Below are positions 32,557 through 50,432 of a stretch of 64,000 nt of DNA, piece after piece (within the stretch, counting starts at the first letter, position 1; the number at the start of each line of letters is the position of its first letter). The notes beneath the pieces are model-generated. The model made no database searches. It was not told the DNA's origin and worked only from the letters and a program-made list of their open reading frames with translations. The translations under genes and the position numbers were made by a program. The stretch is from an uncultured delta proteobacterium (GTDB lineage Bacteria; Desulfobacterota; Binatia; DP-6): contig CAWFFN010000009.1 of NCBI GenBank assembly GCA_963815115.1, positions 1,440,001 through 1,504,000 of the forward strand, written 5' to 3'.

Positions 32557-33537
32557 ATGTTCGGGACCCTCGTCACCGCGCGCTCCAACGTCAACGTTGC
32601 CCTCGTGAAATACTGGGGGAAGCGCGACGCCTCGCTCAACCTCCCGGCCACGGGCAGCATCTCGCTCACCCTCGACGGCCTGTCGGTCGAGGCCGAGGTC
32701 GGCTTCGGCGATGCGTCCACGGACGAGCTGACGATCGACGGCGAGCCCGCGCGAGGTACCGAGCGCGAGCGCCTGGTCGGCTTCCTGGATCTGCTGCGCC
32801 ACGAAGCCCGCCGCGTGGATCGCGCACGCGTCTCGACCCGCAGCCGCGTACCGCGCGGTGCCGGCCTGGCGTCGTCGGCGGCGGCGTTCGCGGCGCTGGC
32901 GCTCGCCGGCAGCCGGGCGGCGGGCCTGCGGCTCGAGCCGCCGGCGCTCTCCGCGCTCGCGCGGCGCGGCTCGGGCTCGGCTGCACGCTCGATCTTCGGC
33001 GGGTTCGTCGAGTGGCACCGCGGCGAGCGGTACGATGGCACCGACTCGATCGCCGAGCCGCTCCTCGCGCCGAGCGACTGGGACCTGCGCATCGTCGTCG
33101 CGCTCGCCAGCACGGAGGCGAAAGCCGTGTCGTCGCGCGACGGCATGGCGCGCGCCGCGGCGTCGCCGTTCTACCCCGCCTGGGTCGCGGGTGCCGAGCG
33201 CGATCTCGCCGAGGCTCGCGCCGCCGTGCGGACGCGCGATCTGGAAGCGCTCGGCCAGCTGGCGGAGCACAGCGCGCTCAAGATGCACGCGGTCGGCCTG
33301 GCGGCGCGGCCGCCGCTGCTCTACTGGCGCGGCGCCACCGTCGACTGCGTGCAGCGGGTGTGGGCACTGCGTGCCGAGGGCATCCCGGCGTTCGTCACCA
33401 TCGACGCCGGCCCGCAGGTGAAGGTTCTGTGCACGCCGGCCAACGCGGCGAAGGTCGCGCAGGCACTCGGGGACGTCCCGGGCGTGGCGCGCGTGATCAC
33501 CTGTGCGCCGGGCAGCGGCGCCGAGGTGCTCGCGTGA
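32557..33537 (+). CDS. mvaD: Diphosphomevalonate decarboxylase
   Basis: NVALVKYWGKRD, GLASSAAAFAAL, ARRGSGSAARS, SSRDGM, TIDAGPQVK. Confidence 0.95.
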   Translation: MFGTLVTARSNVNVALVKYWGKRDASLNLPATGSISLTLDGLSVEAEVGFGDASTDELTIDGEPARGTERERLVGFLDLLRHEARRVDRARVSTRSRVPRGAGLASSAAAFAALALAGSRAAGLRLEPPALSALARRGSGSAARSIFGGFVEWHRGERYDGTDSIAEPLLAPSDWDLRIVVALASTEAKAVSSRDGMARAAASPFYPAWVAGAERDLAEARAAVRTRDLEALGQLAEHSALKMHAVGLAARPPLLYWRGATVDCVQRVWALRAEGIPAFVTIDAGPQVKVLCTPANAAKVAQALGDVPGVARVITCAPGSGAEVLA

Positions 33538-34493
33538 GCGTGACGGCACGCGCGCCCGGCAAGCTCTTCATCACCGGCGAGTGGGCCGTGCTGCGCGGCG
33601 CGCCGGCGCTGGTCGCCGCCGTGGACCGTCATGCGTCGGTCACGGTCGAGCCTGGCGGCGACGGGATCGTCGTCGAGTCGGTCGCGGAAGGTCGCAGCGA
33701 TCATCTGGATGGCGCAGGGGACGGCCCGCTGCCCGGTGGTGATGCGGGCGCGGTGCTGGCCGCGCTGCGCCAGCGCCGCGAGCCGCCACGCGCGCTCCGC
33801 ATCGCGGTCGACTCGTGCGCGTTCCTCGTCGGAGAGCGCAAGCTCGGGCTCGGTCGCAGTGCGGCGACGCTGGTGGCTGCGAGCGCGGCGCTGGCGGCGG
33901 GGGAGACCCCCGCGCAGCTCCTCGGTCGCGCACTCGAGGCGAACGCGCTCTTCCAGGCAGGGCAGGGCAGCGGGGCCGACGTGGCCGCGGCGGTGCACGG
34001 TGGCGTCGTGGAGGTCCGGCGCAGCGCGGACGGGCTCGCCGTCGCCTCGCGAACGCTCCCGGCGGGCCTCCATCTCGTCGCCGGCTGGACGGGGACGCCC
34101 GCGCCGACGACGCCGCTGCTGGTGCGCTTCGCCACCTCGCCGACGCCGGCCGCCCTGGCCGACCTCTCGGCGGCCGCCGTCGCGGCAGCCGACGCCGTGA
34201 CACGGGGCGACGCGGCGACGCTGCTCGACGCGGTGGAGCGCTCCGCGGCGCTCCTGGTCCGGCTCGGCGCCGAGCTGGATCTGCCGCTGGTGACGCCGGC
34301 GCTCGCCACGCTGGTGCGTGTCGCGAACCGCGTCGGCGCCGCGGCGAAGCCGTCGGGCGCCGGAGCGGGCGATTGCGGCATCGCCCTGGCCACCTCGCTG
34401 GCGCAGGCGGCGGCGGTGCGGGCCGCGTGGCAGGACGCCGGCATCCTGCCATTGCCGGTACGGGTGGCGGAGCGCGGGGTGAGCGTTGGCTGA
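33534..34493 (+). CDS. Phosphomevalonate kinase (GHMP family)
   Basis: APGKLFITGEWAVL, KLGLGRSAA, GSGADVAA, KPSGAGAGDCG; GTG overlaps the mvaD stop. Confidence 0.88.
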   Translation: MSVTARAPGKLFITGEWAVLRGAPALVAAVDRHASVTVEPGGDGIVVESVAEGRSDHLDGAGDGPLPGGDAGAVLAALRQRREPPRALRIAVDSCAFLVGERKLGLGRSAATLVAASAALAAGETPAQLLGRALEANALFQAGQGSGADVAAAVHGGVVEVRRSADGLAVASRTLPAGLHLVAGWTGTPAPTTPLLVRFATSPTPAALADLSAAAVAAADAVTRGDAATLLDAVERSAALLVRLGAELDLPLVTPALATLVRVANRVGAAAKPSGAGAGDCGIALATSLAQAAAVRAAWQDAGILPLPVRVAERGVSVG

Positions 34494-35548
34494 GCCGATC
34501 GCCGAGCGCAAGCGCGCGCACCTCGATCTGTGCGAGCAGGCCGAGGTGGAGTACGCGCGCAAGACGACGCTCTTGGAGGAGGTCGAGCTGGTGCACGACG
34601 CGCTCCCCGAGCTGGCCCTCGCCGAGGTCGACGTCTCGACCGGACTGCTCGGCAAGCGACTGCGTGCGCCCCTGCTCATCACGGGCATGACGGGGGGGAC
34701 GAGCGAGGCGGCCGACATCAACCAGGCGCTGGCGCAGGTCGCCGAGGAGCACGGCATCGCCTTCGGCCTCGGCTCGCAGCGCGCCATGCAGCGGGCGCCG
34801 GAGCTCGAGTACACCTTCGCGGTGCGCACCCACGCGCCGACGGCGCTGGTCCTCGCCAACCTCGGCATGGTGCAGGCGGGCGCGCTACGGTCGTCGGAGG
34901 TCGAGCGCCTGGTGCAGCGGGTCGGCGCCGATGCCGTCTGCATCCATCTCAACCCGGCGCAGGAGCTCATCCAGCCCGGCGGCGACCGCGACTTCCGCGG
35001 CGGTCTCGCCACCTTCGCTCGCCTGGTCCGCGACCTGCCGGTGTCCGTGGTGGCGAAGGAGACCGGCTGCGGCATCTCGCGCGACGTCGCGGCGCGCCTG
35101 CGCGACGTCGGGGTGCGGACCATCGACGTCTCCGGCGCCGGCGGCACGTCATGGGTCAAGGTCGAGACGCTGCGTGCGGACGCCGCGGGGCGCGACCTGG
35201 GCGAGGAGTTTGCCGACTGGGGCATTCCCACGGGCGCGGCGGTGGCCGGGTTGCGTGGCGTCGGCGTGGAGGTCATCGCCAGCGGCGGCATCCGCAGCGG
35301 GCTCGACGTGGCCAAGGCGGTGGCGCTGGGTGCCCGCGGGGCGGGCGTTGCGCTGCCCGTGTTCCGGGCCTATCGCGAGGGTGGCGTGGTCGCGGCGGGG
35401 CGCTTCGTCGAGCGGCTGGTGGACGGACTGCGGACCGCGATGGTGCTCACCGGCTCGCGCGACCTCGAGGCCCTGGGGCGAACGCCGCTTGTGATAGGGC
35501 GTCGCTTGCGAGATTGGCTCACCCGTTGGCCGACCCCGGAGGAGGTGC

Positions 35549-35556
<8 letters not shown>
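34486..35556 (+). CDS. fni: Type 2 isopentenyl-diphosphate isomerase
   Basis: RKRAHL, HDALPE, GMTGG, GSQR, HLNPAQE, KETGCG, GAGGTSW, SGGIR. Confidence 0.95.
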
Positions 35557-36832
<1,276 letters not shown>

Positions 36833-36861
36833 CCCGCGCGGCCCCGGCGGGCCAGGGAGCG

Positions 36862-37767
36862 ATGCACGCCAGCGGGCGCGCGGGAGGCAAGGTGATCCTC
36901 CTGGGCGAGCACGTCGTGGTCTACGGCCGGCCGGCGGTGGCGGCGGGGCTGCCGATCGGGCTCGAGGTCGAGGTGACCGAGGGGCAGGGCCCGGTCATCA
37001 CGAGCGACGATCCCGCGCTGGCGGCCGACCCGCGGCCCCGCGAGCTGATCGTCCAGGCGGCGGCGCTGACCGGCCTCGATCCCACGCGCCTCGTGGTGCG
37101 GGTGCGCTCCGAGCTGCCGCCGGGACGCGGGCTCGGCAGCTCGGCCGCGCTGGCGGTGGCGGTGCTGCGCGCCCTCGCGACGCTCGCCGGCAGACGACTC
37201 GACCGGGCCGCGGAGCTCGACGGTGGCCGCCGGCTGGAAACCGTCTTCCACGGCACGCCGTCGGGCATCGACCCTGCGGCCGCCGCGCTCGGCACCTGCT
37301 TCCGGTTCGTGCGCGGCGAGCCGCCGGTGGTGACGCCGCTGCGGCCGGCAATGCCCCTGCCCATCGTCGTCGCGTTCGGCGATCGACCGCGCAGCACCGG
37401 CGCCGCGGTCGGTGGCCTGCGTGCGCGCTGGGAGGCGGACCAGGCGCGCTACGAGGCGCTCTTCGACGCCGTCGGCGAGGTGGTCGAGCGCGGCGCCGCG
37501 GCGGTGGAGGCCGGCGATCTCGTCACCCTCGGGCGGGCCTTCGACGACAATCAGGCGCTGCTGGAGACGCTCGGCGTCTCCTCGGACGAGATCGCCCGGC
37601 TGGTCGCTGCGGCTCGGCGCGCGGGTGCGCTGGGGGCGAAGCTCACCGGCGGCGGCGCGGGCGGCGCGGTGATCGCGCTCGCGCCCGACCCGGAAGCGGT
37701 GGCGGGACGGCTCGAGCACGAGGGATGGACGGCGCTGGTGACTCGCGTCGGCGAGCAGACGCCCTAG
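36862..37767 (+). CDS. mvk: Mevalonate kinase
   Basis: GKVILLGEHVVVYG, PPGRGLGSSAA, HGTPSGID, GAKLTGGGAGG. Confidence 0.93.
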   Translation: MHASGRAGGKVILLGEHVVVYGRPAVAAGLPIGLEVEVTEGQGPVITSDDPALAADPRPRELIVQAAALTGLDPTRLVVRVRSELPPGRGLGSSAALAVAVLRALATLAGRRLDRAAELDGGRRLETVFHGTPSGIDPAAAALGTCFRFVRGEPPVVTPLRPAMPLPIVVAFGDRPRSTGAAVGGLRARWEADQARYEALFDAVGEVVERGAAAVEAGDLVTLGRAFDDNQALLETLGVSSDEIARLVAAARRAGALGAKLTGGGAGGAVIALAPDPEAVAGRLEHEGWTALVTRVGEQTP

Positions 37768-38969
37768 CTGCCCGCGCGCCTCCGCAGCGCCGTCGACAGC
37801 TCCCCGGCACATTCCCGGCCGAGCCGGTGCCGCGCCGCCGGCTGCCTGGCGAGACGCGCGGCCTGACGCCACGCACGAGCCACCTTCTTGTCGTTGACGC
37901 TCGCGCTCGCGAGCAGCCGGCAGCACCGCCCGACCGCCGCCGTGAGCGCTCGCGGCGCCGGCTCGCCGGTTGGGCACGACGACGTCGCGCGCCGCGGCCA
38001 GCTGCAGCTCGCCCCGACGGTGGCCGATTCGATCGCCGGGGCGGACGTCGTTCGGCCGGCTCCCCAGCGCTCGACGAAGGCGGCGGCGACCGCGGCCGCG
38101 TTGTCTGCCGCGAGCCGGTAGTAGTCGAAGAAGACCCTGAAATCCTCGTTGTCGGAGACCGCGCGGAAGGCGATGAACGGCACGCCGCGCGCACCCGCCT
38201 CGCGGGCCACCGCGGCGGTCTCCATGTCGTTGGCGACGATCGTCTCGCCGGCCTGCGCGGCCGCTGGGGGGGCACCGGCCGCCGCGGTCACGCCCGTCGC
38301 GACGTCGCAGCCGAACACCGGATCACGACCGGGAGTGCACGGGTCGGGCCGGCCGCCGAAGGGATCGTCGCTCTCGCCCGTGCCGCCGACGATCACCGTG
38401 GGCAGGTCGGGCAGGCAGACGATCGGACCCGGCGGATCCGGCGGCACCGCCCCGCAGCGCTCCAGGATGACGTTCGGCGCGATCGCGCTCGCGACCTCCA
38501 GGAGCGAGGGATCGGCCGCGTGCGCCGTGCCGTCGTTCTCGAGCCACGTCGCCGGCACCGTGACGTCACCGATACCGTGGGACGCGGAGCCGGCAACGCC
38601 GGAGACCACGACGGCGGCGACGTCGAAGCGATCGAGCACGAGACGGGTGGTGGCGCCCGCGTTGCCGAGGCCGATGCCGAGGAGCCCGAGCACGACGGGG
38701 ACGCCGCCCAGCGTGCCGACGCGCAGCACGCGATCCCCGACCACGAGCGTCTCGTGGACGGTCGCGTGGGTGAGGACCGATTCCAGCTCCGCCGGGAAGG
38801 CGGAGAAGACGGCGAGCATCGGCGGCGAGCCGCAGGCGCTCTCCTCGATCGCGCACAGGCCGTCGCCGAAGTCGGCAGGCGGTGCCGGGGCGGCGCCCGC
38901 GACCGCGGGGACGAGCGCGACGGCGAGCGTTGCGGCCAGCGCGGCGATGCGCCGGGTCACGGGCTCCAT
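37764..38969 (-). CDS. Secreted MTA/SAH-nucleosidase (PNP/UDP-family) protein with Cys-rich tail
   Basis: Signal peptide; SAFPAE, GIGLGNA, SGVAG...IGDV, DMETAAVA, FRAVSD. Confidence 0.75.
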   Translation of the reverse strand: MEPVTRRIAALAATLAVALVPAVAGAAPAPPADFGDGLCAIEESACGSPPMLAVFSAFPAELESVLTHATVHETLVVGDRVLRVGTLGGVPVVLGLLGIGLGNAGATTRLVLDRFDVAAVVVSGVAGSASHGIGDVTVPATWLENDGTAHAADPSLLEVASAIAPNVILERCGAVPPDPPGPIVCLPDLPTVIVGGTGESDDPFGGRPDPCTPGRDPVFGCDVATGVTAAAGAPPAAAQAGETIVANDMETAAVAREAGARGVPFIAFRAVSDNEDFRVFFDYYRLAADNAAAVAAAFVERWGAGRTTSAPAIESATVGASCSWPRRATSSCPTGEPAPRALTAAVGRCCRLLASASVNDKKVARAWRQAARLARQPAARHRLGRECAGELSTALRRRAGS

Positions 38970-39157
38970 ATGGGGTGACCATACCGTAGACCGGCGCGGC
39001 CGTCGCGGGAAATTCACGGCGCGAGTCGTCGCACCGCATGCGCCATGGCGAGCCCGAGGACGCCTCGCGTCACCGGCCGGGCCCGCGGCGGTGGTGGAGG
39101 GTCGCAGGACCGTGATATCGAGGGATGCCTGTGTCGGGGATGCCGGTGGAGGGTCGC

Positions 39158-41086
39158 ATGGGCGCCAGCGAAGTCGTCGAGCAGCAGGGGCTCGCAGCGC
39201 GTGTCGACGAGAGCATCGCGCGCGCGTCGCGAGCGCTCCTCTCCGTCCAGTGCCCGGCGGGCTACTGGCAGGGTGTCGTCGAGGGGGCGGCCCACCTCGA
39301 GGCCGAGTACGTGTTCGCGAACCGCCTGCTCGGACGCCAGCGTTCCGAGCAGGACCGTCTCATGGCAGAGCGCTTGCTCGCGCTGCAGCAGGACGATGGC
39401 GGATGGGCGCTGGCGCCGGGCCAGCCGGGTCATCTGTCGACGAGCGTCCAGGCCTACCTGGCGCTGAAGCTGGCGGGGCTCGGAACCGGCGAGCCGGCCC
39501 TCGCTCGCGCCCGCGACCTGATCCTCTCGCGCGGCGGCCTGGCCGCGTCGGGCATGTTCACGCGTTTCTGGCTCGCCTGCTTCGGGCAGTTCCCCTGGTC
39601 GGGCGTGCCGCGCGTGCCGGTCGAGATGATGCTCCTGCCCAGCTGGGCGCCGCTGAACATCTACCATCTCGCCAGCTGGACGCGGGCCACGCTGGTGCCG
39701 TTCGCGCTGCTGATGGTCCACCGGCCCGAGGCACGCGTGCCGGCGGAAGCCGACCTCCGCGAGCTGTGGCTGCGCGAGCCCACTCCCGCCGACCTGTCGT
39801 TCGCGCGCTCGCCGTCGCTGATCTCGTGGCGCAACGTGTTCCTGGCGCTCGACCGCGCGATCGCGCTCCTCGGCCGCGTGCCCTGGAAGCCGTTGCGCCG
39901 CCGGGCCGTGGCCCGCGCGATCGAGTGGCTGCTGCGCCACGAGGACGCGGCCGGCCAGTGGGCGGGAGCCCAGCCCGCCACCGTGCGATCCGTGCTCGCG
40001 CTGCATGCCATCGGCTTCGCGGCCGATCATCCGACCATCGTGCGCGGCCTGCAGGGCCTCGACGATCTCCTGGTGCAGCGCGGCGACCAGCTCGCCTACC
40101 AGCCGTGCATGGCTCCGACCTGGGACACCGTGAACGCGATGCGGGCCCTGCTCGACGCCGGTCTCGAGCCGCAGCATCCGGCACTGGCCCGCGCGGGCGA
40201 ATGGCTCGTCGGACGGCAGGCGGTACGGCCGGGGGACTGGGCGGTGCACAATCCGGAGCTCGATCCGGGCGGCTGGGCGGCCGAGCCCGCGAACGACTGG
40301 TATCCCAGCGTCGACGTCTCGGCCCTCGCGGTCTCCGTGCTGCAGCAGCTGCCCATCCGAGCGACGCACGCCGGCAGGCGTGCGCTGGCTCACGGCCTCG
40401 ACTGGACGCTCGGCATGCAGGGACGCGACGGCGGCTGGGCGGCGTTCGACACCGACAACGAGTCGCGGTTCCTGGACGCGGTCCCGTTCCCGGACCTCGA
40501 GGGCGTCACCGACCCGCCCAGCGCCGACACCACCGGGCGCGTGCTGGCAGTCGCCGCCGAGCACGGCTTCGGGCTCGGCCTGGGCCGCATCCGGCGGGGC
40601 GCCGAGTTCCTTCGCCGCACCCAGCACGCGGATGGCAGCTGGTCGGGGCGCTGGGGCGTCAACGCCCTCCACGGCACGTGGCTCGCGCTCGCCGGACTCG
40701 CCGCCGCGGGCGAGGACCCGCGCGCGCCGTACGTGCAGCGCGCGGTCGCGTGGCTCGCCGCACGACAGAACGGCGATGGCGGCTGGGGCGAGAGCGTGGC
40801 CTCCTACGAGGACGACGCGCGGCGAGGGTGCGGCGACAGTACCCCGTCGCAGACGGCATGGGCGCTGATGGGTCTCCTCGCTGCCGCCGGAGCCGACCAT
40901 CCGGCCGTGTCGCGCGGAGTCGAGCACCTGGTACGCAGCCAGGACGCCGACGGCCGCTGGGAAGAGGTCGCGTTCACGGCCACGGCCGTTCCGCGGCGCG
41001 CCTACCTGCGCTACGAGCTGTTCTCGCTGCACTACCCGCTCCGCGCCCTCGGCCAGTACCGGGCTCGCGTCGCCTCCACGGCATGA
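39158..41086 (+). CDS. shc: Squalene-hopene cyclase homolog with non-canonical active site
   Basis: QW repeats (QQDDGGW, QGRDGGW, QHADGSW, QNGDGGWGES, QDADGRW), SWTRAT, DPPSAD, GRWGVN, STPSQTAWA; DXDD is replaced by SVDV. Confidence 0.88.
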   Translation: MGASEVVEQQGLAARVDESIARASRALLSVQCPAGYWQGVVEGAAHLEAEYVFANRLLGRQRSEQDRLMAERLLALQQDDGGWALAPGQPGHLSTSVQAYLALKLAGLGTGEPALARARDLILSRGGLAASGMFTRFWLACFGQFPWSGVPRVPVEMMLLPSWAPLNIYHLASWTRATLVPFALLMVHRPEARVPAEADLRELWLREPTPADLSFARSPSLISWRNVFLALDRAIALLGRVPWKPLRRRAVARAIEWLLRHEDAAGQWAGAQPATVRSVLALHAIGFAADHPTIVRGLQGLDDLLVQRGDQLAYQPCMAPTWDTVNAMRALLDAGLEPQHPALARAGEWLVGRQAVRPGDWAVHNPELDPGGWAAEPANDWYPSVDVSALAVSVLQQLPIRATHAGRRALAHGLDWTLGMQGRDGGWAAFDTDNESRFLDAVPFPDLEGVTDPPSADTTGRVLAVAAEHGFGLGLGRIRRGAEFLRRTQHADGSWSGRWGVNALHGTWLALAGLAAAGEDPRAPYVQRAVAWLAARQNGDGGWGESVASYEDDARRGCGDSTPSQTAWALMGLLAAAGADHPAVSRGVEHLVRSQDADGRWEEVAFTATAVPRRAYLRYELFSLHYPLRALGQYRARVASTA

Positions 41087-41946
41087 CGGCCGCCGTCGCG
41101 CAGGTCGAGCGGGCGTACGCCGAGTGCGTCCGCATCGCCCGCCACTACGAGAACTTCCCGATCGGCTCCTTCCTCCTGCCACGCAGGCTGCGGCGCGATC
41201 TCGCGGCGGTGTACGCCTTCGCGCGCGGCGGCGACGACCTGGCGGACGAGGGCGACCCCGCCGGCCGGCTCGCGGCGCTGGCCGCGTACGAGGAACGGCT
41301 GGTCGCCTGCGTGGCCGATCCGCCGGCCGTGGACGACCCGGTCTTCCTGGCCCTCGGCCACACCATCGCGAAGCACGATCTCGGCATCGAGCCGTTCCGC
41401 AACCTGCTCACGGCGTTCCGGCGCGACGCGGCCGGCGAGACCCGGACCATGGCGACCTTCGCGGATCTGGTCGAGTACTGCAGCTGCTCGGCCAATCCGG
41501 TCGGCCGCATCGTGCTCGGGCTGTTCGGATATCGCGACCCCGAGCGGCAGGCGCGCTCCGACGAGATCTGCACGGCCCTGCAGTTCACCAACTGCTGGCA
41601 GGACGTGGCCGGGGACCTCGAGCGGGGCCGCGTCTACCTGCCCCAGGAAGACCTCGATCGCTACGCGGGGAGCCGGGATGCCCTCTCCAGCGGCCGCCTG
41701 ACGCCCGGCTTCGCCGCTCTCATGGCGTTCGAGGTGGAGCGCGCGCGGAGCTGGTTCGCACGCGGGCTCGGTCTGGCGACCCTGGTGCACGGCCGGCTGC
41801 GACGCGAGGTCCGGTTGTTCGCTCACGGCGGGCTGGCGGTGCTCGCCCGCATCGAGGCGTCGGGCTACGACGTCTTCACCCGTCGGCCCACCCTCCGCCG
41901 CGCCGACCTGCTGCGGCTCGTGCTGCGCGAGGTGTGGGCCGCCTGA
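41083..41946 (+). CDS. hpnC: HpnC-type squalene/hydroxysqualene synthase
   Basis: HYENFPIGS, VYAFAR..DDLADEG, YC..SANPVGR, ALQFTNCWQDV..D..RGRVYLP; ATGA overlap with the cyclase. Confidence 0.9.
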   Translation: MTAAVAQVERAYAECVRIARHYENFPIGSFLLPRRLRRDLAAVYAFARGGDDLADEGDPAGRLAALAAYEERLVACVADPPAVDDPVFLALGHTIAKHDLGIEPFRNLLTAFRRDAAGETRTMATFADLVEYCSCSANPVGRIVLGLFGYRDPERQARSDEICTALQFTNCWQDVAGDLERGRVYLPQEDLDRYAGSRDALSSGRLTPGFAALMAFEVERARSWFARGLGLATLVHGRLRREVRLFAHGGLAVLARIEASGYDVFTRRPTLRRADLLRLVLREVWAA

Positions 41947-43244: not shown

Positions 43245-43877
43245 ATGGACTTTCGCGAGGTCATCGAGACGACGCCGACCTGCCGCTTCTACCGGCCGGA
43301 TCCGGTGCCGGACGACGTGCTGCGCCGGGTGCTCGATGCCGCCCGCTGGGCGCCGACGGGCGGCAACCGCCAGGGCGTGCGCTTCATCGTGGTGCGCGAC
43401 CCCGGCCGGCGGCGGCAGCTGAAGGCATGGTACCTTCCGCTGTGGGAGCAGTACGTGTCGCGCGCGACCTCGCGTGACGGTGCACCGATGCCGCGGCTGC
43501 TCGCGAACGCCGACCACTTCGCGCACCATCTCGACGAGGTGCCGGTGCTGATCGTGGTGTGCGCGCAGCTCGGCGACCTGATGGCGACCGACCGCCATCT
43601 CGACCGCCTCTCGCTCGTCGGCGGCGCGTCGGTCTATCCCGCGGTGCAGAACCTGCTGCTGGCGGCGCGGGCCGAGGGCCTCGGGACCGCGCTCACCACG
43701 CTGCTCTGCGCCCTCGAGCCACAGGTGAAGGAGCTGCTCCAAATTCCCGACGGCATCGCGACGGCGGCCACGGTCGCCCTCGGCCATCCCGCCCGCGGCT
43801 TCCCGAAGCGGCTGGCACGCCGGCCGCTCGAGGAATTCTGCTTCGCGGACGCCTACGGAGCGCCGCTCTTCGCCTGA
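43245..43877 (+). CDS. Nitroreductase-family flavoprotein
   Basis: CRFYRPDPVPD, AARWAPTGGNRQ, GASVYPAVQNLLLAARAEGLG. Confidence 0.88.
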   Translation: MDFREVIETTPTCRFYRPDPVPDDVLRRVLDAARWAPTGGNRQGVRFIVVRDPGRRRQLKAWYLPLWEQYVSRATSRDGAPMPRLLANADHFAHHLDEVPVLIVVCAQLGDLMATDRHLDRLSLVGGASVYPAVQNLLLAARAEGLGTALTTLLCALEPQVKELLQIPDGIATAATVALGHPARGFPKRLARRPLEEFCFADAYGAPLFA

Positions 43878-45229: not shown

Positions 45230-45786
45230 GAGGCTCTTTCTCTGCCCTGGACGGGCGAGACAGTCCACCCGCGGCTGACCGGCCGGCCGCGGATCGGTGG
45301 CGGCCCGCCGTACGACCGCCGTCAGCCCGTCCGATCCACCCGGGGCGCTGGTCTTCCTGGTGGGCCTGGCCGCGGGCGTCCCGTTCGGCCTGCTGCTGCC
45401 CGGCGCCGGCGCCGTCCCCCCGAGGCGCACGCGTTTCCGGGAGGGTCACCCCGATCGGCCGCGCGCCACCGGAGCGAGCCGACGCTGGCGGTGTCCGGCG
45501 ACGGGACGCGGATATTCCCACACCGACAGGAGGGCGGGCACGAGGTCGTCTCGTGAGCGAGCTTGCTTCGCCGGCTGAACGGTAGCCGTGCCATCGCGGC
45601 AGCGGCGTGATACTGCACGGACGGCGTGTGGAAGCGATGAGACGGTTCGCGCTTCTCGAGTGTACGCGGGTGCGTGCGGCGACACGGTCAGGGGGCTCAG
45701 GGGGCCGCTCGAAGAAGAGGATCGTGGAAAGGCCTGTAGCACGGGCTGGCCGAGTGCGCGCCGCCGGAGCAGCTGCTCGGCGTGCG

Positions 45787-48700
45787 ATGTCCGCGAGAGG
45801 CGCCCAGGGAGCCCCCGGCCAGGTGACCCCCGCGATCGTGGGTCTGGGTTCTTCGGCAGGAGGTCTCGACGCCCTCAAGCGGTTCTTCAACAGCATGCCA
45901 TCCGACAGCGGCATGGCCTTCGTGCTGGTGCAGCACCTGGACCCGACGCACCCGAGCCTGATCGCGGAGCTGCTCGGCAGGTGCACCGCGATGTCCGTGG
46001 TGCAGGTGGACGCCGACACGCCGGTCGAGGCCGATCACGTCTATTGCATGCCGCCGGGCCGATACCTGAGCATCAGCGGACGGACGTTGCGGCTGACCGG
46101 GCCGGTCGAGACCGGCAGCGTCCGCATGCCGATCGACTTCTTCCTGCGCTCCCTGGGCGCGGACGTGCAGGAGCGGGGGATCGGGATCGTTCTCTCCGGA
46201 ACCGGAACCGACGGCACGCTCGGCCTGCGAGCGATCAAGGCGGCTGGAGGGTTGGCCATCGCGCAGGATCCCGTGACCGCCGAGCACGATGGCATGCCGC
46301 GCAGCGCGATCGCTGACGGAGCGATCGACCATGTCCTGTCCCCCGAGCAGATGCCTGACGTCCTGGCCGAGTTCCTGCGGCACCCCTATGCCCGAGGTCC
46401 GAGCGGCCTCCCCGCGGCAGAAGACATCGGCCGCGATCGTCTGGATGACGTCCTGGGGGTCCTGCTCGATCGGACGGACCTCGACTTCCGCAGCTACAAG
46501 CGAAGCACGCTCGAGCGTCGCATCGGCCGCCGCATGGGCTTGAAGCACATCGAGCGCACGGTCGACTACGTGCGACTCCTGACGCGTGACCCCGCGGAGG
46601 CCGCGGCGCTGCGCGACGATCTTCTGATCAGCGTCACGAGCTTCTTCCGCGACCCCGAGGCATGGCGGGTTCTGCAGGAGCAGGTGCTTCGTCCAATGAT
46701 TGCACGCACTGACGTCCATGCGGCGCTCCGCGTGTGGGTGCCCGGCTGCGCAACCGGGGAGGAGGCATACTCCATCGCCATGCTCCTCATCGAGGAGCGG
46801 GAAGCCGCGGCGAAGAGCTGCCCCATCCAGATCTTCGCCTCGGACGTGGATGCGGGCGCGCTCGAGGTGGGCCGGGCTGGTCTCTACCCGGGGAGCATCG
46901 TCGCCGACGTGCCGGCGCACCGGCGCCGCCGGTTCTTCATAGACGAGAGGCACGGCGCTCGGGTCGGCAAGGGGCTGCGCGAGTCGGTGGTGTTCGCCCG
47001 GCAGAACCTCCTGGCGGACCCGCCGTTCTCCAAGCTCGACCTCGTCACCTGCCGCAACCTCCTCATGTACCTCGAGCCGGAGGCCCAGCGGAGGATCCTC
47101 TCGCTGCTGCACTTCGCACTCGTCGAGGGGGGGCACCTGCTTCTGGGGACCGCGGAGACGATCGGCCAGCAGGAAGACCTGTTCGCGGTGGTCTCGAAGC
47201 ACTGGCGCATCTACCGACGGATCGGACCGCCGCGGTACGACAAGGTACGGTTCCCGGTCATGGATGAATTCGCAGTCGGGCGGCGGATCGATCCGTCACC
47301 CGGCCACCCGGGCGTCGGGCGGCTCGGGGCGCTGGCCCAGCAGGCGCTGCTCGAGCGCTTCGTCCCGGCGTCCGTGCTGATCAACCGCAGGTACGAGATC
47401 GTGTACTTCGCGGGACCGACCGAGGACTATCTGGTCCAGCCGACCGGCGTCCCCACCCAGGACCTGATGTCCCGGCTGCGCGAGGGCCTGCCGACCAAGC
47501 TGCGCGGCGCCATCCGCAGGGCGATCCGCGAGGGCGAGCGTCCGGTCGTCATTGCCGTCCGAGTCCGGCGCGGAGACGCGTGGCAGCGGGTGAAGGTGAC
47601 GGTCGAACCCCTCGCGGGAATCGGCGAGATGGAGGGGTTGCTGCTGATTTCCTTCGTGGACGGACCCCGGGCGGCGCCTCCGGCGCTCCATTCCGCGAAT
47701 GCCGCAGGCGAGCACGACGAACCGGTCACCCGAGCGCTCGAGGACGAGCTCAAGGCCACACGGGAGGAGCTGCAGGGCAGCGTCGGCGACCTGGAGAGCT
47801 CCAATGAAGAGCTGAAGGTCGTCAACGAAGAAGTGATGTCGGTCAACGAGGAGCTGCGCTCCTCCAACGAGGAGCTCGAGACCTCCAAGGAGGAGCTCCA
47901 GTCGCTCAACGAGGAGCTGAGCACCGTCAACACGCAGCTCGAGGACAAGGTCAACGAGCTGGAGCAGGCGAACAACGACCTGGACAATCTGCTGACCAGC
48001 ACCAACATCGCAACGATTTTCCTCGACACCAGCTTCCACGTACGGCGCTTCACGCCGGCCGCGGCCAGGCTGTTCCACATGACGCCCGCGGACGTCGGGC
48101 GGCAGTTGGGCGACGTCGTCGGGCGGGGTATCGACCCCGATCTCCCGCAGGACAGCGAGGCCGTGCTCGCTCGCCTGGGGTCGATCAGCAAGGAGGTGCA
48201 GGGGGCGGACGGCCGGTCGTACGTCCGGCAGGTGCTACCCTATCGCACGCGCGACGACCGGATCGAGGGCGTGGTGATCACCTTCTCGGACGTCGCGGCA
48301 GAGGCGCTCCAGGAGGCACGGCTCTACGCCGAGGCCATCGTGAACACGGTCCGGGAACCCCTGCTGGTGCTCGACTCCGAATTGTGCGTCCTGTCGGCGA
48401 ATCGGTCTTTCTATCATACCTTCCGGCTGTCGCCGGAAGAGACCGTCAACCGTGCGCTCTACGAGCTGAACGATCGCGAGCTGGACGTCCCGAGGCTCCG
48501 AGCGCTGCTCGGCGTGATTCTGCCGGACCGGGGTGGCCTGACCGACTTCGAACTCGAGCACGACTTTGCGAGGATCGGGCGACGGATCATGCTGCTGAAC
48601 GCGCGCATCCTGGCGCGGGGCGGCGACCGCCCGGACCTGATTCTTCTCGCCATGGAGGACATCACCGAGCGCAAGCGTGCCGAGCACGCGCTGCGCGAGA

Positions 48701-49824
48701 GCGAGGCCATGACGCGGGCCGGCATCGAGGCCGCCGTGGACGGCGTCGTCGCGACGGACGAACGCGGTACCGTCCTCTCCTTCAACCCGGCCGCCGAGCT
48801 CATCTTCGGCTACTCCGGCGGAGAGGTGATCGGGCAGAACGTCGGGATGCTGGTGCCACCATCCTACCTGGACGAGTACCAGCGGTCCGTGGCGGCCTTC
48901 CTCGAGACGCCAGACCGTCACGTCATCGGCATCGCGCAGGAGGTCCACGGCCGGCACAAGAACGGCACCACCTTCCCGATGGACCTGAACCTCAGCGAGT
49001 TCGACGACGGCTCAGGTCGCCGGTTCGTCGCAACGATCCGCGACATCACCGAGCGCAAGTGGGCGGAGGAAGAGGTCCGGAGGCGCCAGGCCGAGCTGGC
49101 CCACGTGCTCCGGATCGCCACCATCGAGCGACTGGCAGCCTCCCTGGCGCACGAGCTCAACCAGCCTCTCACCGCGATCGCCAACGAGGTGGAAGCGTGT
49201 GCGACCTACGTCCGGTCGGGCAAGCGCGAGCCCCGCCGCCTGCTGTCGTTGCTCGAGCGCGCGGGAGCGGAGGCGCTGCGCGCCGGCGAGATCGTGCACC
49301 ACCTGCGAGACTTCGTGCTGCGGAGCGAGCCGCGGATCGAATCGGCTGACCTCTGCGAGGTGATCCGCAATGCGACCCGCTGGCTGGCGCGTGAGATGGA
49401 GGACGAGCGGATCACGCTGCGGCTCGATCTGGCACCGCAGGGGCTGCTGGTTCACGCCGATCGCATCCAGATCGAGCAGGTGTTCGTGAATCTCGTGCAG
49501 AACGCCATCGACGCGATCCGCGACGGGGGGAGCGAGACGAGAGAGATCCGCGTACGGACGTCGCGGGGCGAGGACGGCACGGCCGAGGTGCTCGTCGACG
49601 ATACCGGCATCGGCTTTGCCGCCGGGGCCACCGCGCGATTGTACGAACCCTTCTTCACCACCAAGCCGCAAGGTATGGGAATGGGCCTGGCGATCAGCCG
49701 CACCATCGTGGAGCTGCACCGCGGCCGGCTCTCGGTCGAGCCCCGGGAGTCGGGGCTCGGTACCACGGTGCGACTGGTCCTGCCCGCCGGCGCCGTGTCG
49801 GCAGCGGGCGAGAGATCGGGATGA
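45787..49824 (+). CDS. CheB-CheR fusion with coiled coil, PAS domains and histidine kinase
   Basis: GSSAGG/VQHL/SGTGTDG (CheB); VTSFFRD, GCATGEEAYS, CRNLLMY (CheR); NEEL repeats; PAS; HELNQPL; FFTTKPQGMGMGL. Confidence 0.92.
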   Translation: MSARGAQGAPGQVTPAIVGLGSSAGGLDALKRFFNSMPSDSGMAFVLVQHLDPTHPSLIAELLGRCTAMSVVQVDADTPVEADHVYCMPPGRYLSISGRTLRLTGPVETGSVRMPIDFFLRSLGADVQERGIGIVLSGTGTDGTLGLRAIKAAGGLAIAQDPVTAEHDGMPRSAIADGAIDHVLSPEQMPDVLAEFLRHPYARGPSGLPAAEDIGRDRLDDVLGVLLDRTDLDFRSYKRSTLERRIGRRMGLKHIERTVDYVRLLTRDPAEAAALRDDLLISVTSFFRDPEAWRVLQEQVLRPMIARTDVHAALRVWVPGCATGEEAYSIAMLLIEEREAAAKSCPIQIFASDVDAGALEVGRAGLYPGSIVADVPAHRRRRFFIDERHGARVGKGLRESVVFARQNLLADPPFSKLDLVTCRNLLMYLEPEAQRRILSLLHFALVEGGHLLLGTAETIGQQEDLFAVVSKHWRIYRRIGPPRYDKVRFPVMDEFAVGRRIDPSPGHPGVGRLGALAQQALLERFVPASVLINRRYEIVYFAGPTEDYLVQPTGVPTQDLMSRLREGLPTKLRGAIRRAIREGERPVVIAVRVRRGDAWQRVKVTVEPLAGIGEMEGLLLISFVDGPRAAPPALHSANAAGEHDEPVTRALEDELKATREELQGSVGDLESSNEELKVVNEEVMSVNEELRSSNEELETSKEELQSLNEELSTVNTQLEDKVNELEQANNDLDNLLTSTNIATIFLDTSFHVRRFTPAAARLFHMTPADVGRQLGDVVGRGIDPDLPQDSEAVLARLGSISKEVQGADGRSYVRQVLPYRTRDDRIEGVVITFSDVAAEALQEARLYAEAIVNTVREPLLVLDSELCVLSANRSFYHTFRLSPEETVNRALYELNDRELDVPRLRALLGVILPDRGGLTDFELEHDFARIGRRIMLLNARILARGGDRPDLILLAMEDITERKRAEHALRESEAMTRAGIEAAVDGVVATDERGTVLSFNPAAELIFGYSGGEVIGQNVGMLVPPSYLDEYQRSVAAFLETPDRHVIGIAQEVHGRHKNGTTFPMDLNLSEFDDGSGRRFVATIRDITERKWAEEEVRRRQAELAHVLRIATIERLAASLAHELNQPLTAIANEVEACATYVRSGKREPRRLLSLLERAGAEALRAGEIVHHLRDFVLRSEPRIESADLCEVIRNATRWLAREMEDERITLRLDLAPQGLLVHADRIQIEQVFVNLVQNAIDAIRDGGSETREIRVRTSRGEDGTAEVLVDDTGIGFAAGATARLYEPFFTTKPQGMGMGLAISRTIVELHRGRLSVEPRESGLGTTVRLVLPAGAVSAAGERSG

Positions 49825-50432
49825 CGGCAGTTCCGACGGTCTTCGTGGTCGACGACAATCCGGGCGTCCGCAAGTCGCTGCAGGCGCTCGTCGAGGCGGA
49901 GGGTCTGGCGGTCGCCACGTACGCGTCCGCCGCGGAATTCCTCGAGGCCTGGGACGTACAGCGACCTGGCTGCCTCGTCCTCGACGTCCGTCTTCGGGGG
50001 GATAGCGGTCTGAATCTGCAGGACGAGCTTCGCAGGCGGAACGCCACGCTGCCGATCATCGTGATGACCGGGTATGCCGACGTTCCCACCTCCGTGCGTG
50101 CGCTCAAGGGCGGTGCCATCGACTTCCTCCGGAAGCCCGTGCCCCCGAAGCAGTTGATTGCACGGATTCGCGAGGCCATCGACGTCGATCGGCGCACTCG
50201 TGACGCGGGAGCGCAACGCGCCGCCGTGACGGATCGAATCGCCCAGCTCACACCGCGCGAGCGCGAGGTCATGGAGCTGCTGGCCGTGGGGAACAGTTCC
50301 AAGGCAATCGCCGTGGCGCTAGACATCAGCGTGCGCACGGTGGAGAGCCATCGCCGGACCGTGCTCCGGAAGCTGGGGGTCTCCTCGGCGGCGCAGCTGG
50401 CGCGTGCCGTCGCTCGGAGCCAGCTGCCGTAG
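49821..50432 (+). CDS. FixJ/LuxR-family response regulator
   Basis: VFVVDD, CLVLDVR, DFLRKP, LTPREREV...SKAIA..LDISVRTVESHR. Confidence 0.93.
   Translation: MTAVPTVFVVDDNPGVRKSLQALVEAEGLAVATYASAAEFLEAWDVQRPGCLVLDVRLRGDSGLNLQDELRRRNATLPIIVMTGYADVPTSVRALKGGAIDFLRKPVPPKQLIARIREAIDVDRRTRDAGAQRAAVTDRIAQLTPREREVMELLAVGNSSKAIAVALDISVRTVESHRRTVLRKLGVSSAAQLARAVARSQLP

Follow-up and report, generated by a model that had tools for sequence, protein, structure and literature searches.

Squalene-hopene cyclases (SHCs) are a model for polyene cyclisation and the source of the hopane biomarkers. SHC* is the name given here to an SHC homolog encoded on a stretch of 64,000 nucleotides (the window) from an uncultured delta proteobacterium of the Binatia (GenBank assembly GCA_963815115.1, contig CAWFFN010000009.1, positions 1,440,001 to 1,504,000). 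Its fold, model score and ancestry make SHC* a member of the SHCs, yet it lacks two defining features of the family, namely the DxDD motif and the aromatic lining of the cavity. As judged by comparison with its relatives, the remodelling of SHC* is genuine, recurs in a conserved clade and is maintained by selection, so that SHC* does not count as an ordinary hopene cyclase. Because its active site is replaced yet selection preserves the protein, SHC* appears to do something other than ordinary hopene synthesis. We propose that selection maintains SHC* although it has ceased to turn squalene into hopene, and that it has most likely lost catalysis altogether, a proposal whose chances we regard as evenly poised.

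The open reading frame (ORF) of SHC* spans 39125-41086 (+) in a window of about 70-75% G+C and encodes a full-length homolog of 653 aa. A start at the internal ATG 39158 (M12), giving 642 aa at 39158..41086 (+), is likelier than the upstream ATG at 39125 because it is preceded, by eye, by a Shine-Dalgarno-like GGAGG (39149..39153, +) at 4 nt, agrees with the database gene call for the window's own protein (P0002, 642 aa) and removes part of the stretch of residues 1-18 that is disordered in the AlphaFold2 model. The original prediction of a full-length, intact SHC homolog is borne out, as SHC* covers the Pfam domains SQHop_cyclase_N and SQHop_cyclase_C end to end (E 8e-106 and 4e-115) and reaches 642.5 bits against the hopene cyclase equivalog model TIGR01507 (EC 5.4.99.17), which is above the cut-off of 431.1; the canonical paralog from the same genome scores 742. 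That all QW repeats are present holds for the eight sites, aligned to the paralog, and for their tryptophans (8/8), but one glutamine is lost (7/8); the third site reads RHEDAAGQW. The fold is predicted to be intact: the model has a predicted local distance difference test score (pLDDT) of 90.2 and a predicted TM-score (pTM) of 0.90, and can be superimposed onto the A. acidocaldarius enzyme (AaSHC; PDB 1gsz, 2sqc, 1sqc), to which SHC* is about 40% identical, with a TM-score of 0.90-0.96.

The active site of SHC* departs from AaSHC, whose residue numbering is used throughout, in four motifs whose DNA coordinates were verified by translation. All the substitutions listed in the original prediction were recovered in a phmmer alignment to 1gsz (E 2.7e-147). 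The proton-donor motif YPDVDDTA is YPSVDVSA (D374S, D377V and T378S), so that SVDVSA at 40307..40324 (+) stands in place of DxDD(S/T)A and D376 is the sole aspartate kept. GGFAFQ has become GGWAAE (40268..40285, +) through F365A together with F363W and Q366E, where canonical relatives read GGWAFE. GVNYLYGT is replaced by GVNALHGT (40655..40678, +), which amounts to Y493A and Y495H against AaSHC and to F493A and Y495H against the GVNF(I/V)YGT of canonical relatives. Finally, TGTGFPGDFYLGY..Y is TATAVPRRAYLRY..F, comprising G600A, F601V, G603R, D604R, F605A and Y612F; the whole stretch at 40976..41023 (+) reads TATAVPRRAYLRYELF (G600A, F601V, H604R, F605A, Y612F) where canonical relatives have TGTGFPRHFYLRYHLY. 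I261A is a further difference from AaSHC. Not all differences from AaSHC are peculiar to SHC*: its canonical relatives share Y420F, Q366E and H451R with it, and also have F493 and H604. The departures that set SHC* apart from the canonical relatives are at D374, D377, F365, F493, Y495, G600, F601, H604, F605, Y612 and I261. W312, D313, F434, W489, L607 and Y609 are retained from AaSHC.

The substitutions are more than chance, since the same columns are invariant or nearly so among 92 aligned canonical relatives: D374, D376, D377, F365, F601 and F605 are each present in 91 of the 91 that have a residue at the position. F365, Y420, F601, F605, Y609, Y612, W169, W312 and W489 are what we take to be the cation-stabilising aromatics of the cavity. 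SHC* has lost part of this lining (F365A, F601V, F605A, Y612F) and keeps W169, W312, W489, Y609 and F420. The summed side-chain volume at 30 positions that we take to line the cavity, a crude stand-in for cavity volume, is 4637 +/- 26 A^3 in canonical proteins and 297-772 A^3 lower in all 23 remodelled sequences scored (-381 for SHC*). It is very improbable that SHC* is an ordinary hopene or diplopterol cyclase whose changes compensate one another. Such an enzyme would explain the SHC fold and a score above the equivalog cut-off, but it is at odds with the invariance of the six positions above and with the canonical SHC in the same genome, and in the available part of PMC6127371 hopene is not the main product of an AaSHC mutant that has lost D377 only (D377C).

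The remodelling is the property of a clade. Motifs were read in the best 120 of 3078 database matches to SHC*, and 27 of these (P0002 included) carry the remodelled forms xVDVSA, VPFPDLE, GVNAL(H/Y)GT and T.T.(V/I)P; 24 of the 27 are full length. Two more have other degenerate motifs (P0085 and P0098) and the remainder are canonical, one being gapped in the motif region. In the tree the 27 remodelled rows, made up of 19 matched proteins and eight genome copies, form one clade with an SH-like support of 100 (FastTree) and an SH-aLRT of 100 (IQ-TREE, LG+C20). The clade is nested inside canonical SHCs, and the source labels of several canonical matches are Candidatus Binatia. A sequencing error or lineage-specific accident is ruled out, as the remodelling is common to many matches and genomes.

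Two layers of change can be told apart within the clade. The first comprises the clade-wide set D374N/S, D377V, F493A, F601V/I, H604R, F605S/A, A435P, V174L and L36V. No member retains D374 or D377, and at 16 positions the whole clade has settled on a residue that differs from the canonical one, including D377V, F493A, H604R, L36V, V174L, I432V, A435P and A439G. V174, I432, A435 and A439 presumably lie around the gate of the AaSHC substrate channel. The second layer consists of further, variable changes at F365, W312, Y495, Y609, Y612 and, in some members, D376, which are seen in the genus-level subclade of SHC* (n=16). There the D376 column holds 12 D, two G, one E and one R, the W312 column seven R, six L, two W and one C, and six and four kinds of residue occur at positions 609 and 612, respectively. 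A scan of metagenome contigs with the D376-less P0016 gave, among the 80 loci kept, nearest relatives of 70-72% identity (L055, L057 and L060), which are ordinary remodelled members with D376 present where the region is covered. Among public sequencing runs, a search listed no RNA data set as a holder, and DNA data sets with small shares only. P0085 and P0098 sit on long branches, have the motifs DVPTSA and SVPGSA and carry no aspartate at the D376 position. As P0098 branches among canonical proteins, inside one of their subclades, loss of the acid must have happened repeatedly among SHC homologs.

SHC* occupies the slot of the canonical 'type-1' SHC in a mevalonate-hopanoid cluster, as shown by synteny with related genomes. 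In genomes with a single copy the gene order is MVD-PMK-IDI2-HMGR-MK-SHC-HMGS-HpnC-HpnD-HpnE. The MVD-PMK-IDI2-HMGR-MK block of the window lies at 32557..37767 (+), and in every type-1 locus examined outside the genus of the window genome the SHC slot follows it directly. In two other genera SHC* stands between MK and HpnC, with an HMGS remnant after SHC* where this was checked (G012), whereas in the window's own genus MK is followed by a divergent PNP_UDP gene in two of four loci and then by SHC*-HpnC-P450-nitroreductase. The HMGS of G012 (L036 10566-12014) matches the N-terminal half of its model only, reaching 100 bits where 360 are required, and is probably a remnant, so that degeneration at the type-1 locus extends beyond the cyclase. 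The canonical type-1 proteins (e.g. G017/P0022 and G020/P0029), among which the SHC* clade is nested, are 57-62% identical to SHC* and share its place after the mevalonate block. Unlike SHC*, they keep DVDDSA, GGWAFEF, GVNF(I/V)YGT and the canonical form of the position 600-612 stretch, they are the sole SHC of their genome, and they are followed by HMGS (absent in G020), HpnC and HpnD, with HpnE after these in the loci checked. SHC* would be the positional ortholog of the type-1 hopene cyclase in the mevalonate-hopanoid cluster of this Binatia-like order.

The window genome encodes a second SHC homolog, SHC2, at a distance of 110 kb, and this one has the canonical motifs (DTDDTA, GGWAFEF, TGTGFPGHFYLRY). 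It belongs to a second locus (G000:C9:1581400-1601399, L050) made up of HMGR2, SHC2, HMGS, HpnD, HpnE and HpnH, in which HMGR2 matches the NAD-type 'degradative' model TIGR00532. The cluster of the window has no HMGS. The HpnC next to SHC* (41083..41946, +) begins within the stop codon of SHC* (ATGA), and no other HpnC of the genome exceeds the cut-off. Squalene synthesis is thus split between two loci, with HpnC beside SHC* and HpnD and HpnE beside SHC2. A thiolase and an enoyl-CoA hydratase adjoin the second locus. A third SQS_PSY-family gene (G000:C8:759631-760455) scores 177.9 bits to HpnC, which is below the cut-off, and is possibly a phytoene synthase.

A search of 25 genomes of the order in which the motifs were read found the remodelled copy in eight, from three genera, with the frame open in all eight. 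Each of these also has a 'type-2' SHC match of about 50% identity, which is a full-length canonical protein in seven and partial in G002. Twelve genomes have a single canonical type-1 SHC, one (89% complete) has type 2 alone, and two (G013 and G015) have no SHC copy. The 100% complete genome G007 keeps, directly after MK, a more degenerate open SHC-like frame (L054 9054-10865) that has an ETDLTG motif, has lost the W489 region and sits on an end branch of 0.79-1.13; no HpnE or HpnH over the cut-off was found genome-wide, and the locus examined shows no HMGS or HpnC/D/E match downstream of the frame. In G005 (58% complete, L025) the type-1 SHC is spread over several frames with four in-frame TGA codons, which points to a pseudogene or else to a fault in the assembly. 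In lineages with the second locus, hopene synthesis would belong to SHC2 and the type-1 copy would have lost the ancestral chemistry.

SHC* is under purifying selection over the whole protein. Ratios of nonsynonymous to synonymous substitution (dN/dS) were estimated pairwise by the method of Nei and Gojobori (NG86); as the G+C fraction at third codon positions approaches 0.9 and dS shows partial saturation, only comparisons between genes are safe. SHC* has ratios of 0.083 (G010/G011), 0.18-0.22 (pairs that include G012) and 0.22-0.29 (between members of the genus of the window genome), against 0.066, 0.155-0.16 and 0.22-0.25 for SHC2 in the same genome pairs where both are measurable, and the mevalonate genes give values similar to those of SHC*. 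These matches exclude neutral decay. The check put forward with the original prediction, whether homologs share the substitutions under purifying selection, has a positive outcome for the remodelled clade, with dN/dS of 0.08-0.29. A slower decay, in which SHC* is a redundant relic of the takeover by SHC2 that is still open through short time or operon position, is improbable. It would agree with the path from the shared node, which by FastTree branch-length sums is about 0.63-0.75 substitutions per site in the remodelled clade against 0.26-0.31 in the canonical sisters (about 2.3-2.9 times faster since the split), with the half-length HMGS of G012, and with a graded series that leads from remodelled to D376-less proteins, to the frame of G007, to the frameshifted copy of G005 and to the absence of any copy in G013 and G015. 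Opposed to this are ratios equal to those of the canonical paralog and of essential mevalonate genes, frames that are open in all eight genomes and full length in most of the matches, and a predicted fold of high confidence.

While the protein as a whole is preserved, the catalytic site is no longer treated as special in the lineage of SHC*. Column entropies were compared between 40 AaSHC active-site positions and the rest of the protein. In the 92 canonical relatives the means are 0.16 and 0.91, respectively (p 1.7e-10), in 24 remodelled sequences 0.75 and 0.76 (p 0.9) and in the subclade of SHC* 0.69 and 0.55 (p 0.12), figures that rest on related sequences in small groups and on positions known from earlier structural and mutational work. 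As the active site of this subclade is no less variable than the rest, the special constraint on it is gone. The catalytic residues of SHC* are thus lost or no longer specially conserved in a protein that is under purifying selection throughout, a combination that is used to recognise pseudoenzymes. The original prediction had left a choice between a new cyclase class and a pseudo-enzyme and had named the retention of DxDD by close homologs as grounds for abandoning both. The 27 remodelled matches do not retain it, so the choice stands, and the lost constraint and the G, R or E at D376 in four of 16 subclade members are arguments on the side of the pseudo-enzyme.

A non-catalytic SHC* is supported further by the reduction of DxDD to SVDV, by the exchange of the aromatics at 365, 493, 601 and 605 for A, A, V and A, and by the still more degenerate frame that G007 keeps in the same slot. 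SHC* would then be an SHC-fold protein, probably membrane-associated, with a widened and less acidic cavity, and may have a binding, scaffolding or regulatory role in squalene or hopanoid metabolism, putatively co-translated with HpnC. Several observations weigh against this proposal in addition to the basis of the entropy test. In two other subclades (g6- and g13-type; n=8) the entropy of the active-site columns is below that of the others (0.30 vs 0.58, p 0.007), and together with the clade-wide fixed replacements this looks like re-tooling and not loss. D313, D447, W489, Q262 and F434 are kept in all 24 remodelled sequences and D376 in 20 of them; SHC* itself keeps D376, its second-sphere partners D313 and D447, and W489, Q262 and F434. 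Furthermore, the D377C mutant of AaSHC is still weakly active and gives a monocyclic product (PMC6127371). The pattern of substitutions looks like the result of two stages, a conserved re-tooling in the ancestor of the clade that was followed by a dissolving active site in the lineage of SHC*.

The substantial, though lesser, possibility is that SHC* does catalyse, as a class II triterpene cyclase whose chemistry is new, either early termination or an alternative substrate. In the first form a mono- or bicyclic product would result from a wider cavity and from a weaker acid that consists of one aspartate, as it does in oxidosqualene cyclases, the product being of the 3-deoxyachilleol or polypodatetraene type; in the second the substrate would be more reactive or bulkier, such as an epoxide, hydroxysqualene or a longer polyprenoid. 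Such an enzyme would account for the retention of D376, D313, D447, W489 and R451, for fixed sites that do not look random as they include positions 377, 493 and 604 and the gate positions 174 and 435, for the constraint on the active site in the g6- and g13-type subclades, for the reduced side-chain volume at the cavity, and for an operon that joins SHC* to HpnC and, in the window's genus, to a CYP124-type hydroxylase of methyl-branched lipids. It is harder to reconcile with the protonation machinery of the subclade, which drifts at D374, D376, Y495, W312 and position 451, with the four of 16 members that lack D376 and are still intact, with the arginines at 312 and 609 in several members, and with the loss of D374 on top of that of D377, where the AaSHC mutant D377C reportedly has strongly reduced activity already. 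We hold it rather unlikely that the clade as a whole consists of natural single-Asp triterpene cyclases that form one or two rings (3-deoxyachilleol- or polypodatetraene-like) or whose substrate is a squalene derivative that is bulkier or carries oxygen.

Laboratory mutants of AaSHC are among the closest known parallels to SHC*. D377C converts squalene to monocyclic 3-deoxyachilleol with strongly decreased activity, and BmeTC D373C behaves alike, according to the available part of PMC6127371; this lends some weight to the earlier suggestion of a partially cyclised product. In the accessible portion of PMC9634032, D377C/V380E/V381A cyclises oxidosqualene to mono- and pentacyclic products, and deletion of G600 limits AaSHC to (3S)-oxidosqualene. 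Like SHC*, the D377C, D377N and D377C/V380E/V381A enzymes have a non-acidic residue for the last aspartate of DxDD, but they keep D374 and all aromatics, whereas SHC* is natural, multiply substituted and known from its sequence. Departures from DxDD can also coexist with catalysis in nature, as reported in the available parts of the papers on MstE, which has DxD (PMC12414744), and on the active pleuromutilin cyclase, a class II cyclase with DxDM (PMC12887988). Both belong to other subfamilies with other substrates, and both keep the first aspartate that SHC* has lost.

SHC* was also compared with other triterpene cyclases. Human oxidosqualene cyclase (OSC; 1w6k) shares the single aspartate at the D376 position but is only 24-25% identical to SHC*, which has a valine where we take the activating cysteine of OSCs to be. 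SHC* is rejected as an OSC by a TIGR03463 score of 268.8 bits against a cut-off of 851, by the valine that follows the aspartate and by the genome, in which no SE-type squalene epoxidase (PF08491) was found although it is 100% complete. The last observation also counts against the earlier idea of an epoxide substrate, and against an active cyclase that would depend on one. TIGR04277 (squa_tetra_cyc, 'tetrahymanol synthase' in NCBIfam) gives a partial match of 148.8 bits, below its cut-off of 500. Hydroxysqualene, another of the suggested substrates, would fit the overlap of SHC* with the start of the sole HpnC, but squalene synthesis of the ordinary kind requires this HpnC in any case.

In genome surveys, a match above the threshold of the SHC model is taken as evidence of hopanoid capacity. 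Because the equivalog cut-off is passed without the motif, and because the largest recent survey dropped sequences without an aligned DxD motif before tree building (as stated in the available part of PMC12414744), clades like that of SHC* are miscounted and also left unstudied. Neither SHC paralogs that lack DxDD nor the SHCs of Binatia were found described in the literature covered, which was mostly the main text of papers outside subscription journals. If SHC* is active, it would be a natural early-terminating or alternative-substrate cyclase of relevance to biocatalysis and to orphan biomarkers. Should the clade consist of single-Asp cyclases, their products would be a class of triterpenoids new to bacteria, widespread in the environment and formed in addition to hopanoids, and the enzymes would be nature's equivalent of the engineered D377C variant with which ambrein is made. 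If SHC* is inactive, the family would offer a clean series from enzyme to pseudoenzyme after the arrival of a second pathway copy. To our knowledge no SHC-fold pseudoenzyme has been described, and the literature search found none.

The PNP_UDP_1 gene between MK and SHC* (37764..39017, -) is MTA/SAH-nucleosidase-like, is divergent from SHC* and has, by eye, a signal-peptide-like N-terminus. The MK-PNP(-)-SHC* arrangement is also present in G002 and in the metagenome contigs L057 and L060. In G004 the PNP match is about 2.4 kb away and HpnC is missing, and no PNP match was found at the SHC* locus of G003. The gene was rejected as HpnG, since its 25.5 bits fall far short of the cut-off of 187 and a better HpnG-like gene lies on another contig, although that one too is below the cut-off with 114.7 bits.

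The apparent SHC*-HpnC-P450-nitroreductase unit continues with a CYP124-like cytochrome P450 (41973..43226, +), which starts at a GTG preceded by AGGAG, 26 nt past the HpnC stop, and ends with a nitroreductase-family protein (43245..43877, +). The P450-nitroreductase pair follows SHC* in all four SHC*-bearing genomes of the genus. The P450 is homologous to CYP124 (E 6e-147), whose PDB entries name it 'methyl-branched lipid omega-hydroxylase', and by analogy such a hydroxylase would suit an isoprenoid tail. Its orthologs (71-82%) occur away from the SHC locus in ten genomes outside the genus, seven of which have canonical SHC only. The link between the P450 and SHC* is weak for this reason, which counts against a P450 dedicated to an SHC* product and against its use as support for the active cyclase.

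Further downstream, a single ORF of 1405 aa (45607-49824, +) combines a CheB methylesterase, a CheR methyltransferase, several PAS domains, HisKA and HATPase, and is followed by a LuxR-type response regulator at 49821-50432.

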